64,000 bases of DNA from Lama glama (Eukaryota), in assembly GCA_028534125.1 (NCBI GenBank), contig CM052824.1, positions 60,760,001-60,824,000 on the forward strand, written 5' to 3'. Each line of letters opens with the position of its first letter. Position 1 is the first letter of the stretch. Shown piece after piece: positions 40,200 through 46,700 of the stretch. The notes below the pieces were generated by a model that ran no database searches, was not told the origin of the DNA, and saw only the letters and a program-made list of their open reading frames with translations. Position numbers and translations under genes: made by a program.

Positions 40200-40321
40200 C
40201 TTCACTGTCCACCCACTTGAGGGTGAGCGGGTGGTCCTGGTGCAGACGGCACATCTCCCTCACCTCCTCACAGAGCTCGTCGAAGGTGGTGGCCGAGTCC
40301 AGGCTGGTGATCAGGATGTCT
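40200..40321 (-). CDS. PRKCZ: PRKCZ exon 2 (PB1 domain: DILITSLDSATTFDELCEEVREMCRLHQDHPLTLKWVDSE)
   Basis: 122 nt with ccccag acceptor and GTAGG donor. Phase joins exon 1 (GG|A GAC). Contains the aPKC PB1 motif LKWVDSEGD. Confidence 0.97.
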
Positions 40322-40545: not shown

Positions 40546-43500
40546 AGTGGGGGCTCCAGAGACCAAGCCCCCACTCCCACCCACCCCAACACCCTGGGTC
40601 ACCCACACCGGTACCAGGCACACTCGCCCCTGACCCAGCATCCACCAGTCCACCTGCGACCAGGAGCCCTGGAAGTCTGTCTGCCATCCCTTCACCTTCT
40701 ACCTCTCCCTGTGCCACGAATCCCTCCACCCCGCAGTTCCGCCCCTAAGTGGAAGCTAGCCTCCCCCCCGCCAGTGCTTCAGGGCCTAGAGGCCAGGCAG
40801 TGGCCCCCAGCAGTCTGGAAGCCCTGACACCAGGCTGGGCCCCCGGACGCCAGGCCTATCACCAGCCACAGCAATTCAGCTCTTCCCCACCCAGGGCAGG
40901 ACTTCAGCACGCACGGGGAGGGGCCGTCCCACCCCCACGCCCAATGTCCTCCCGAACCTGAGTCAGGCAGCCCCTCTGAGCAAACAGGGCCCCCTGAGGC
41001 TGCCAGCTCAGGACTGTCAGGCAACCGCCTGAGGGACTGTCCTTCCCTGGGTGCCTAGAAGGGTACCAGGCCCCAGCACCCAGCCCTGGGCCATGCACAG
41101 AGCAGGCGCTTGATAAGGATCTGGACAAGCCGGAGCTGGAGAGACTGCGGCGCTGCCTAGCTCTCTCTGTGATTTTTTTTTCATAACCTGATTTTTTTCT
41201 CTCTCTCTTTTTTTAATGGAAGTATAGCCCGTTTACAGCGTCGTGTCAAAAGTTTCTGCGATCTTACAAAAGCGGGCTTCTGAGACTCAGCCTGGCAGAA
41301 CAGGGTCTCCACACCCAACCAAGGCACCCCCTGAAGACACAGGAGCTGCTGGACCCCACTTCAGACTCCGGTGACTACACACCCTGCAAAGGCCCAGCTG
41401 GTGGAGGGGGAGGCTCTGACCTCCAGCTTTTGGAGGGACTGTGGCGGAGGTGGGGGGACGGGAAAGGACAACCAGGAGAAGCCATCGCCAGTGGGAGCCG
41501 CTGAAGCCCCTCCCACCTTTAAGAACAGTGTCTTCAACACATCTGACTCTCAGCTCCTGACCCTGCTGCTTAAAAATAACCTCCCTCCAGGAGGCAGCAG
41601 CAGAGAATTCCACTTGGACCTGCGGAGTTTGGATCAGTGAGCGCGGTTCTTGGTGGGTGCTCTCCAGTGCCAGCGTCTGTGCTGGGCTCTGAGGACTAAG
41701 TCTGCCAACTCAGACAGTCCCCGGGGAGAGGCACCAGCACGGAGCACTTTGGGAAGAGCACGGGGAGGAGTGAGCGAGTGCGAGCTGGACTGGGAAGGAA
41801 TGGTGGAGCCTGGGGCAGAAATGGGGGGGGTGACAGGGAGGAGGGAAAGAGGAGCGGGAGGGGAGGAGAGAGGAAGGAGCAGAGGTTGGGAATGGAAGGA
41901 AGAGGAAAAGTGTAGGGTGTGGCCCCATCAGCCTGGGGAAACCGGACTCAACAGGTCACATATCCCTCCCTCGGTAACCAAAGCGCTCTCCAGGGGCCCT
42001 AGCCAGGGAGGGGAGGGAGGGGCGAGGGACAGGTCCAGCAGCCACCCAGCCAGAACTCCCAGGGGCTCCGCGGAACTCTGCCCAAGACTCCTGCCTCACC
42101 CACCTCCATCCCGGGCTCAGTGCCGGAGGGGCCTGGGGGAAGGCAGGGGGTCCGGTTCCCACCCACCCCCTGGCCTCTCCGGGTGTGGACTTCCTTTCAT
42201 TAGGAATCAACTCTGATTTTCCAAAAGCCGCTTGCTGCTCAATCCCATGGCTCCAGACAGAGAGGACGACCATGTCTGATACTGAGACGCCCGTTCCTTG
42301 CAGTGGGCAAGCAGGAAGGACCAGTATGAGGACCAGGACCTAGCTGGCATCTCACCAGTTCAGCCCATCCTTCCAGGAGAGAAGACAAGATTCCCCAACC
42401 TCCTGAGGTGCGCTGGCCCGGCGTCCCTCAGAAATCCTTCGGTGGGGCTCTGCCACCAATTCTGCCCCCCCCCCGCGCTCCCCCCCCCCCCGCTCCCAAG
42501 TGATCAGGCTAAGGACAGCAGAGGGCAGGAGGAGAGGCTTGACAGACACCCAGACAAGGTGTGCTCACCCGGCCAAGAGCCTGAAGCCCCACCTCGGGTG
42601 CACCACAGTGGGGACCACCAAGTTCAACTGCGGGCCAGTGTTCGGCTCCCTTCCCCTTCCCCCAGCAGAGGCGACCCTGGGAGCAGCCCGTCTGATCTCG
42701 GGCGCCTGGAGTCCAAGACAGGTGGGAAGCAGCGGCAAAGGCGCCTAGCTCTCCGATGAGCGCCGTCTGCACTGCGCTAGAAGGGGCAGCGGGGTTCTGG
42801 TCTCCAGTGGCCAAGAACCCAGCGCTTCCTGGGCCAGGCCGGGCGCTCCGGTCACTGACCCCCGTGAGGCCCCCTCGCCCCACTTCACAACGAGGCAGGT
42901 CGAATCCAGGGCGCGGTGCCCGGACGCAGGGCCCGGAGGCTGTCCCAAGGGTCCAGTCACCAAAGGAACCGCGCCCCAGCCCTTCCAGGCGCCCTCCATT
43001 CGTCCAACCGCCGGGGACTCACCGCACCTGGCCTTCTCCGGTCAATAAACCTTTGTTAAACGGAGACCTCTGGCTCGGTAAATTGGGAAAAGTTCAGGAA
43101 AACCTCGATTTTTAAAACTGTCAGTTTTCACAGTTCGACAGAAACTTTCGTCCTTACGGGTCTGTGGCTTAATGTTCTGACCAGCTTTCCAGGGAGACAG
43201 TCAACACAGTGCCCGGGGCTGCGGACCGTGCCCGACGCCCGCCTCCGGCGCCACAGGGTCCTTCGGGCAAGTCCGGGCCCAGGAAAATCTCCTCCAGGCA
43301 GGGAGAGACCCTTGCGGCCGCCGCGCTCCGAGCCGGGCCCGGCGACCCCGCCCTGCCCGCGAGTTCTCCCGCAGGTGACGTCCAAGCGAGCCCGGAGCGC
43401 CCACCTCGCCCGGCGCCGCCGCTCGGCGCTGGCGCGTCAGGACCTCCCGGGACGCCCCTCCGCCCAGAGTGGCCTCGCGGCCCCACCCCTCCTGCGCCAC

Positions 43501-43668
43501 GGCCGGCTGCCCACAGCCCTCGGCCTCCCGAAGTAGCGGCGACACGGTCCCCGACGGCCGGCGCGATCGCGGGCCGCTCCCGACGCCGGCTCGGCCCTCC
43601 GCCCCGCGGGCCTCGACGCACACACCCCCGGCCCGGGTAGGGCTCCGCCGTCGGGCGCTCGCGCTCAC

Positions 43669-43739
43669 CCGTTGTAGTGCGCCTTCAGGCGGACGCGGCC
43701 GCCGCTCCCGTCCATCTTGGGGCCCGTCCTGCTGGGCAT
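43669..43739 (-). CDS. PRKCZ: Protein kinase C zeta, coding part of exon 1 (MPSRTGPKMDGSGGRVRLKAHYNG)
   Basis: ATG at 43739-43737 (gccATGc). The translation matches the PKCzeta N-terminus. 71 nt, followed by donor GTGAG; lies inside a CpG island. Confidence 0.97.
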
Positions 43740-43760
43740 GGCGCGCTCCGCCGGCCGCCG

Positions 43761-43790
43761 TCAGCGCCGCGCTCCGGACGCTCGGGCCAT
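43761..43790 (-). other. Upstream ORF in the PRKCZ 5' UTR (MARASGARR*)
   Basis: gccATGg at 43790; TGA at 43763-43761, 21 nt before the main ATG and in the same frame. Confidence 0.8.
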
Positions 43791-46700
43791 GGCGCGGAGC
43801 CCCAGCGGCCGGGCCGCGGCGCAGGTGGGACCGACGGTGGAACGCGGAAGGGAGCGCGCGGCGCAGGGTCCGAGGGACGCGAGTCCCGCCAACTCCGCGG
43901 AACTTGGCGGCGGGCGGGGCGGGGCGGGGGCGCGGCCGGCGGGCGCGCGCAGGGGGTTCGGGGGACGCGCACGGAGTCCGGCGTCAGGGCTCGCCGGCGG
44001 CGGGGGGGTCCGAACATGGCCGACCCGAGACCCAGCCGGCGGCCAATCGGCGGGGCGGGCGGACCCGGGGCGGGGGCGGTGGCACCTGCGGCCAATGAGG
44101 GCGAGGCGGGGCCGCCACCTGGGCCAATCCCCGGGGGACCCTGCGGCCTTGGCCCAATAGCGCGGCGCTGGGCGGACTACCTGTCGGGCGGGGCGCGGCC
44201 CCACCTGCGGCCAATGGGAGCGCGTGCGGCCCCGCTCTGCCCGGCAACCCGCGCCCCACGCCCGCCCTGCGCGCTGGCCCCTCGGTGAAGCGGGCTCTCG
44301 GGGCCGCGGTTCCCAGGTGGGGCCCCTGAGCTGCGCGCCCTGGGAACTTACGGAAATACGGGCCCTCGGCCCAAACCAGACTGGTTGAGTCGAAACTCCA
44401 GCAGTCTTTGCTAACAAGCCCGGGGAATTCGGGGCGAGCGCTAGTCTGAGAGCCGCTGAGCTAGGGGACAGCGGGGAGGGGGTCTCCCTAGAGGAGTGCG
44501 GCAGCCGCTCAGACCTTTGACTCCGAACGGCGCTCGGACTGCGGTGACCCGCGTCCGGCCAGCTTACGGACGGGGAGACTGCGAGGAGCAGAGAACCCGG
44601 CGAAGGTCACCGCCGGCAGGTCCGGGCTCAGCTGGTTCTCCCGGCCCCAGCCGCCCTCCTCCCATTGCGGAAGGTTTGTCTACGCTCGCTAGCCTTCCCC
44701 CTCTGCTCCAGTCCACTCCTCGGTCCAGGACAAGGAAACTGCGTTTGTGCAGGTCGCCCTTGACCTTCACTTCTGAATCCACAGCTTCTTTGGGTCTTAC
44801 TAACACCGTGCATTTGTTCTGGACCGTCGCCTCGAACTCTACCTACACCCCCGCCCCCCAGGTGCCTGCATCCTGGGCCTCTTCCCCTTAAACGCGGGAT
44901 CCGGTTTTCCCTGAGGAACCCATCCCGTGCTGGTTGCATCCCAGGGGGCCCAAACCTGCAGTTTGCGGGGCCCAGGTGGGCACCCCAGACTCAGAGGTCT
45001 GCGGCTGCCTCATCCCTGCCATCCCTGCAGAACCCGTTGCCTCCCTCCCCTTCCCTACCCCACCCTGTTGGCAACCTCTGACCCTGGACTCCGGCCCTAG
45101 AGAAGCCACTCCTCACCTGGACAATTGTAAGGAATTCCCATGCACACACTTTCATTCCAGAGACGCTTCCTAGCGCCTCCTGGTACCAGGTGCTGGGGTG
45201 TCCCTGGAGAACCAAGAAGACACAGGTCACAGAACCCATGCTCTCCTCAGAGATGGCCGCCAAGACACCTGTTGACAGCCCGCTGCTCACTAAGCTGCTG
45301 TGAACGCTCCCATCTTTGAAAACAAACAAACAAACAAACTAAAAAAGTCTGCATCCCACACCCGTCCACCCATCAGTCCATTTCTCAGTTCTTCACCACA
45401 AAACTCCTGCCTGGAGCTGTCTGCAGCCCTTGTCTCCACTTTATCTCTCCTGCACTTTCTCTGAGCCCCTCCCTTCCCCCCACCATCACCACCAACTCCC
45501 GTGTTTGAAATACAGTGGCCGGTTCTCAGATTGTTTCCCGGTTGGCCCTTCACAGTGTGCTCACCCTAGGACTCTGCTCCCTCCCTCCTCTCCTCACCTC
45601 CCCCACTGCTGCTTCCTGCTGCCCCACCCCCTACCAAACCCGCCTCCTCGTCTTCGGTCCTCTGAGACCCTGGAGCGGCTCAAGCCCACCTCCAAGCACC
45701 ACCCCAGGCTCAGGTTCCCCCACCTCACCCCTCCCGCGCTTCCAGGCCTCCCTCGGACATGCCCTTTGTCCATTCTCAGCTCGAGCTACCTTTGCCTCCT
45801 CACACCCCCACCCCCCAGATTCCAGCCTCGTCTCGCCTCTTCCGTTGCTGCCACCTGGCCTGAGCCGCGCCCTGCGTGCTGGGATTCTTGCAGCAGCCCA
45901 ATTTCCATAGAACGAAGTCAGCCCGTGTCCGTCTGTCCGGCATTCGAAACCTGCCGTGGTTTCCATCCTCAGGGACCCCAGGCCTTCTGCCCTCCCAGGT
46001 GGTCTCCTAGTGCCCCAGCCGCCCAGCGGCATCGGCCTCGGCCTTCTCACGTGCATCCCATCTCCTGGGAGCACCTGTGCCCAGACCCACACTTGTCTGA
46101 AGTCCTCATCGTCACTGATGCCCGCTTCATCCACCCCCAACGCAGGCACAGGGGTCCCTGGCGGTCAGTTGCATGTGAAGGGGGTGGAGCCGCAGGCATG
46201 AGCAGGACCCTGCAGCCCAGAAGCAAGCGTGTGGGATGCAGCCTCCTGGCCAGCACGGTGGCTGTGTCTCCTGGGCTGTCGTGAGTCCAGCCTGGCTCAT
46301 GGCCACGGATGGGCACGCCCTGGCGGTTGGGGAGGAGCAAGGATGCCCACAGTATCCCCCAGCACTCTGCTGTCCTGTCTCAGTGTGGTGGGGGTCAGTG
46401 AGGTCAGCGAGGAGGGGTCAGGGAGCCCAGTTCTTCATGCCCACTTCCCACTGCAGACAGGACCAGCCAGCGAGTGGCCCTGTCACTGGGCACGTCTCTT
46501 GGATGTGCCCCATCCCAGGCCCCTCTACATGACAGCCCAAGTCTGGCCCAAGAGCTGTTTCTACCCAGGGAAGCCCTTGCCAGGGTGGGAGCCCCAGGTG
46601 TCCTGGGTGTCCTGGTGGTCACTGGCCCCCACCTGCAGACCTGAATGCCACATGGGAACCTCAGCCCCCAGGCCTGGTGAGAAAGCCTGGAGGGGAGGTA

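Follow-up and report, generated by a model that had tools for sequence, protein, structure and literature searches.

The first exon of PRKCZ, the gene for protein kinase C zeta (PKC-zeta), carries just ahead of its main start codon an upstream open reading frame (uORF) of nine codons that, judging from orthologous leaders, has apparently been kept across mammals. The reading that we favour, and hold to be rather likely, is that of a conserved repressive or reinitiation uORF that would lower kinase output. It was found on the minus strand of the window, the 64,000-nucleotide stretch of Lama glama DNA analysed here, where the upstream start codon (uATG), the uORF stop and the main start codon share one frame.

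The PRKCZ leader and its start codons

The uATG (43790-43788) stands in CGCGCCATGGC, with G at both -3 and +4, and its frame closes at a TGA (43763-43761) followed by CGG. The main ATG (43739-43737) stands in CGCGCCATGCC, with G at -3 and C at +4. The main features, all on the minus strand, are as follows.

43761..43790, minus strand: uORF of nine codons plus TGA (MARASGARR*), opened by a strong Kozak ATG; signature in 17/17 orthologous clusters
43758..43763, minus strand: uORF stop and context, TGA-CGG; L-T in 15/15 frame +1 and A-D-G in 2/2 frame +2 orthologous ORFs
43740..43760, minus strand: stop-free spacer of 21 nt (RRPAERA on readthrough); 21 nt in 14/17 clusters, 18 nt in 2, 20 nt in 1
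43669..43739, minus strand: coding part of PRKCZ exon 1, opening MPSRTGPKMDGSGGRVRLKAHYNG; splice donor GTGAGC next, after 43669
43713..43715, minus strand: second in-frame ATG of exon 1 (Met9), in the strong context AAGATGG, 45 nt past the uORF stop
43890..43892, minus strand: near-cognate TTG in the uORF frame, opening a 43-codon ORF to the uORF stop; frame lost in orthologues
40200..40321, minus strand: PRKCZ exon 2 (PB1 domain), with AG/GT borders
43917..44267, minus strand: TATA-less CpG-island promoter (consensus matches; CpG observed/expected 1.03)
44215-44047, minus strand: five ATTGG (CCAAT) boxes (consensus matches)
44020, minus strand: YY1-like motif GCCATGTT (consensus match)
43986, minus strand: half-CRE (consensus match)

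The sequence-only reading, which had described an upstream ATG in strong context opening MARASGARR-TGA at 43790, a main ATG without the +4 G lying 51 nt away in the same frame, and an open frame from TGA-CGG to the main ATG, is exact on each of these points in the window sequence. Its description did not include Met9, the third in-frame ATG, which is kept in 27/27 matches of a search with the exon-1 peptide and is, from its context, a candidate start by reinitiation or leaky scanning.

The uORF frame is also open for 272 codons 5' of the uATG (44606-43761, minus strand), with TTG or CTG codons at 43952, 43892 and 43805, an extension that is not kept in orthologues. Another frame holds an ORF of 110 codons (44017-43685, minus strand) whose ATG lies within the YY1-like motif and which overlaps the main start; it would be an overlapping uORF if any transcripts start above 44017, and the CCAT motif at its start is seen in several orthologous ORFs.

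Gene identity and probable transcription of the leader

The gene is PRKCZ: its exon-1 peptide is 92-100% identical to named PKC-zeta proteins, exon 2 is nearest to that of the hippopotamus among the retrieved proteins (38/40), and the genome (G000) carries the pseudosubstrate exon 58 kb further downstream. The paralogue PRKCI (L033:1426-1530, G000:C4) shares with PRKCZ an in-frame ATG pair, here Met1 and Met10. A paralogous uORF was sought there, and no ATG occurs within 280 nt upstream of the PRKCI start, the frame of which is closed by a TAG 36 codons upstream. Upstream of PRKCZ the minus strand of the window carries exons of a GABA-A receptor subunit (at about 58764 and 60325), by synteny probably GABRD.

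The putative promoter motifs (YY1, half-CRE, CCAAT), which include several GC boxes in 43917..44267, lie 130-480 nt 5' of the uATG, and from them we infer a start site upstream of it. No YAG acceptor was found between 44085 and the main ATG, which makes removal of the uATG by splicing unlikely. Six RNA runs contain 0.32-0.38 of the words of 43400-44200; these were unaligned and are not counted as evidence.

A human PRKCZ uORF, NM_002744 29-139, is among the translated ORFs in supplement 1 of PMC4739776, whose method prefers AUG starts when these score. The listed human uORF is 111 nt long and is not the 30-nt AUG ORF. If the RefSeq coding sequence begins where we assume it to, the stop of the listed uORF would be the orthologous one, 21 nt ahead of the main ATG. 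A search for the term PRKCZ in the supplements of PMC10032668, PMC6547434, PMC7943595 and PMC9789052 (11 of 13 files) gave no match. A gene-level predicted DENR dependence for PRKCZ (0 to 42), found in the accessible part of PMC5473865, was set aside, as the model there is one of one-codon uORFs and the transcript is unspecified; a mention of Prkcz in the available text of PMC10307641 is unrelated.

Chance expectation and conservation

How often such a layout arises by chance was gauged from 12 Mb of sequence simulated from this CpG island, the GC content of which is 81%. In the simulated island 73% of stop triplets are TGA, the next base is C after 28% of these and the next triplet CGG after 3.2%, and seven open codons follow the stop in 95%; with the one-in-three chance of a common frame, TGA, CGG and an open frame multiply to about 0.7% per uORF. 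Since 4392 genes have translated uORFs (PMC7943595, in the part available), tens of genes with this layout are expected. The window has 32 copies of TGACGG against 29.0 +/- 4.8 expected, and so no enrichment. The layout in one genome is unremarkable, and conservation is what exceeds chance; as one genome proves nothing, conservation had to be tested.

It was read from database ORFs that gene callers had placed over the orthologous leader in the two frames not used by the uORF. Searches with the ORF gave 11 clusters, a profile ending at the stop gave 15 (5 of them new) and a frame +2 search gave 2, for a total of 18, of which 17 span the leader (15 in frame +1, 2 in frame +2). Cluster P0058 was left out because it ends before the uATG, as were the members P0045, P0046 and P0049, whose frame closes before it; 12 further cluster members, also with 51 nt, were not counted as independent. 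The clusters include Galemys pyrenaicus (P0034) and Alexandromys fortis (P0037, P0057, P0058). In frame +1 the signatures are H-G for the uATG, L-T for the stop and R-H for the main ATG; in frame +2 they are P-W, A-D and P/Q-C, respectively.

Read at the peptide level, the uATG and stop signatures stand nine codons apart in 17 of 17 clusters, while ATG-to-ATG spacing amounts to 51 nt in 14 clusters, 48 nt in two others and 50 nt in the last one; the frame from uATG to main ATG is thus kept in 16 of 17. The stretch of about 114 nt just 5' of the uATG serves as an internal control: among the same 17 clusters it has eight lengths (105-116 nt), falls in all three frames and equals the window's length in only two, whereas the uORF itself is without indel. 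The codon before the uATG reads R in 5/15, S in 9/15 and Y in 1/15, all of which fit a purine at -3. It is this agreement in start, length and stop, set against eight lengths just upstream, on which we base the view that the uORF is a conserved feature, apparently kept across mammals. The sequence-only reading had made its case depend on such a comparison of leaders: at this level the uATG, the uORF length and the stop signature stand throughout, and frame and spacing stand in all clusters save one, which is out of frame.

Several properties of the sample bear on these counts. Third codon positions are unseen in the orthologues, such that His could be CAC and Leu need not be CTG; the orthologous ATG and TGA-CGG therefore follow only from combining two frames across species, and no single orthologue displays ATG and TGA at the DNA level. 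Nine of the 17 clusters are vole-like and Alexandromys accounts for three copies, leaving perhaps nine independent lineages, with no primate, marsupial or bird leader among them. Because the first ORF search and the frame +2 search scored past the main ATG, in-frame matches were favoured. An atlas search returned only matches under 0.9.

Two oddities of the databases came to light on the way. In Alexandromys fortis the PRKCZ promoter and first exons occur in three copies or more, each on another contig (P0037, P0057, P0058). The gene models of two of these end after exon 3, a truncation reminiscent of mouse PKC-zeta II, and the uORF signature is retained in two. The Galemys model annotated as 'protein kinase C zeta type' (P0034) translates both leader and exon 1 in an incorrect frame and continues into intron 1; it is an annotation artefact in public databases.

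How the uORF may act

Under the repressive or reinitiation reading, the uAUG in its strong context would, on general knowledge of initiation, capture most scanning subunits; nine codons would then be translated and termination would occur at the weak UGA-C stop, after which some ribosomes would drop off and some resume scanning. The latter could reinitiate at Met1, 21 nt on, or at Met9, 45 nt on, and subunits that leak past the uAUG would start at Met1. As 21 nt is a short distance, reinitiation would fall partly on Met9 in its strong context; that this matters is a tentative proposal, which we would sooner doubt than assert. Selection would keep the start-stop unit and not the peptide, since a frameshift inside the uORF would create an ORF overlapping the main start while indels in the spacer would be tolerated. 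In keeping with this, the distinct changes in uORF and spacer among 12 ORFs comprise 9 non-synonymous and 5 synonymous ones, out of 47 and 41 possible, respectively, although the numbers are small. Any readthrough of the stop would be a basal leak without a selected role.

Published work fits such a scheme. Weak UGA or UAG stops are preferred in translated human uORFs, a bias that the study relates to reinitiation (PMC7943595), and a 48-nt reporter uORF, similar in size to that of PRKCZ, sends ribosomes along the same three paths in comparable shares, roughly 25-36% drop-off, 28-31% reinitiation and 18-22% leaky scanning (PMC6630898, in the sections available). The proposal of the sequence-only reading that the uORF lowers PKC-zeta output is likely to be right, given the strong context and the start, length and stop signature in all 17 clusters. 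The level of PKC-zeta matters for cell polarity and tumour metabolism. A conserved strong uORF would be a simple handle on kinase dose and on the choice between Met1 and Met9. What the repressive reading does not explain is that the spacer is in frame in 16 of 17 clusters.

Alternative explanations

It is possible, if unlikely, that the conservation lies in the DNA and not in translation, CCAT and TGACG being kept as transcription factor sites (a YY1-type core and a half-CRE) of a CpG-island promoter and first exon, with the frame as a by-product. The TGACG at the stop does match a half-CRE, of which a second copy stands at 43986, several orthologues display a motif of the CCAT type as at 44020, and the invariant core is a short nucleotide block round TGACG. 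However, these are consensus matches with putative factor names, and a factor site would leave the pattern of +4 G and -3 purine unexplained, as it would the 27 nt from ATG to stop, fixed in 17/17 clusters while the neighbouring DNA varies freely in length. Since a leader with a strong AUG ahead of the main start usually pays a cost for it, the retention of this AUG suggests a translational role. Another scenario, which would account for the common frame, is that ribosomes coming from the uAUG decode UGA-CGG at a useful rate, yielding PKC-zeta with 17 additional N-terminal residues. If true, this would be the first N-terminal extension made by readthrough, and the activity of a polarity kinase would come to depend on how faithfully translation terminates; the locus is also an unusually clean test case for readthrough of uORF stops as a source of such extensions. 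Apart from the frame itself, the stop is followed by C in 15/15 frame +1 ORFs and then by -GG in 2/2 frame +2 ORFs, and UGACGG is a type II readthrough hexamer (PMC13517186, as far as the accessible text goes), so that the claim that UGA-CGG is a known viral readthrough motif is well founded. Each of the two 48-nt spacers can be explained by one deletion of 1 nt and one of 2 nt with no substitution, whereas a single 3-nt deletion would need 3 substitutions in Galemys and 1 in P0039, the twelve 51-nt frame +1 orthologues needing 0-2. This pattern may hint at frame restoration but no more, since a model with two free deletions is easier to fit and the combined length of two indels is divisible by three in about one case out of three. 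Against these points stands P0007, a spacer of 50 nt with a 1-nt deletion and 0 substitutions, out of frame on a single contig; in its exon-1 peptide it has G14C and an altered Y22 in common with dog PKC-zeta, and is thus probably a real orthologue. Triplet slippage is expected in CGG-rich DNA, and the bias of two of the searches towards in-frame matches also weakens the count. The peptide bears no mark of purifying selection (the 9 and 5 changes given above), and the extension is at the N-terminus in 0/27 matches of the exon-1 peptide search. Sites with UGA-CGG in VEEV and CTFV yield less than 1% readthrough without an extended stem-loop from +12 (PMC13517186, available part). Thus, while the hexamer of a type II signal is present in PRKCZ, no such stem-loop is predicted: twelve folds of the spliced mRNA, begun at +9, +12 or +15, are all no more stable than dinucleotide shuffles (z -0.39 to +1.61), and predicted folds of exon 1 and leader likewise hold no stem-loop above shuffles (z 0.08 and -0.08). 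Weak stops, moreover, are usual for translated uORFs and linked to reinitiation, so that a conserved UGA-C needs no readthrough product. A 2022 preprint (10.1101/2022.05.02.490320) names this route to N-terminal extensions as a possibility but says that no case of it had been reported, our literature search, mostly outside subscription journals, found no example made by uORF readthrough, and the term 'readthrough' is absent from the main text of PMC9789052. We consider useful decoding of the stop quite improbable. The N-terminally extended PKC-zeta of the sequence-only reading hence retains the 16 of 17 in-frame leaders, two of them after net 3-nt deletions, but is probably not a conserved function, in view of P0007, the lack of purifying selection and the missing stem-loop.

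A further attraction of readthrough is that, with Trp inserted at the stop, the junction would read SGARRWRRP, its GARRWR being identical to six residues of the pseudosubstrate of PKC-zeta in this genome, RRGARRWRKL; GARRWRR would form a second pseudosubstrate-like stretch that could alter autoinhibition. A six-residue run like GARRWR occurs at 16 of 59,848 simulated TGA sites, or at 70 of them if any W-, C- or R-centred stretch of PKC-zeta is allowed, and a degenerate pseudosubstrate pattern has 273 occurrences in the genome (G000), two of them in PRKCZ. G-A is kept in 4/15 frame +1 orthologues and the key Ala is replaced in 9/15, the two frame +2 ORFs being uninformative for these codons, and the uORF has Ala-Ser where the real pseudosubstrate has two Arg ahead of G-A. 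The match was noticed post hoc and depends on choosing Trp; we keep it as a lead. A duplication of the pseudosubstrate exon at the DNA level was rejected by eye, the codons being different. Perhaps the free nine-residue peptide itself acts in trans as a pseudosubstrate-like inhibitor, as does uPEP2 of PKC-eta, which begins MASRGALRR and the residues 1-9 of which were modelled in the substrate pocket (PMC8501901, in the text available); MARASGARR is similar in length to these nine residues and ends in G-A-R-R. However, DNA with 81% GC encodes R, A and G more often than any other residues, and the nine-residue peptide is not conserved: the Ala at the phospho-acceptor position with basic neighbours that marks a uPEP2-type peptide is not kept in most orthologues, and the upstream Arg-Arg is absent. 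uPEP2, besides, has 26 residues, is weaker in a shortened form and, within the same part of that paper (PMC8501901), does not inhibit PKC-zeta. We regard an action in trans as very improbable.

Relation to known systems

The repressive or reinitiation uORF that we prefer for PRKCZ has relatives. The same gene yields PKM-zeta, the transcript of which we take to arise from an internal promoter and to lack exon 1. uORFs in the PKM-zeta leader repress translation of that atypical PKC-zeta product (PMC5061749, available part); they belong to another transcript, whereas here one short uORF precedes full-length PKC-zeta. Translational control has been studied in the PKM-zeta leader; for the exon-1 uORF of full-length PKC-zeta a literature search, mostly outside subscription journals, found no study. 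uORF2 of PRKCH, which encodes uPEP2, is like that of PRKCZ a conserved AUG uORF ahead of a PKC gene with a pseudosubstrate-like G-A-x-R-R start, and its 26-residue peptide is conserved and inhibits novel PKCs in trans (PMC8501901, as far as available). The PRKCZ uORF, in contrast, has nine residues and an unconserved peptide, and its best pseudosubstrate match spans the stop codon.

Among stops that are read through, the type II signals of VEEV and CTFV share with PRKCZ a UGA followed by CGG and an open frame behind (PMC13517186, in part), whereas PRKCZ has no predicted extended stem-loop near +12. Efficient readthrough in mammals occurs at UGA-CUAG (PMC4132726, accessible text), and the PRKCZ site is not CUAG. 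Readthrough in PRKCZ would extend the N-terminus, whereas the viral type II and UGA-CUAG cases extend the C-terminus. In C/EBP alpha and beta a short conserved uORF just 5' of two in-frame AUGs can shift the choice of start, an arrangement that resembles the uORF, Met1 and Met9 of PRKCZ; however, the C/EBP uORFs are out of frame and their isoforms differ by whole domains, whereas Met1 and Met9 products of PKC-zeta would differ by eight residues.
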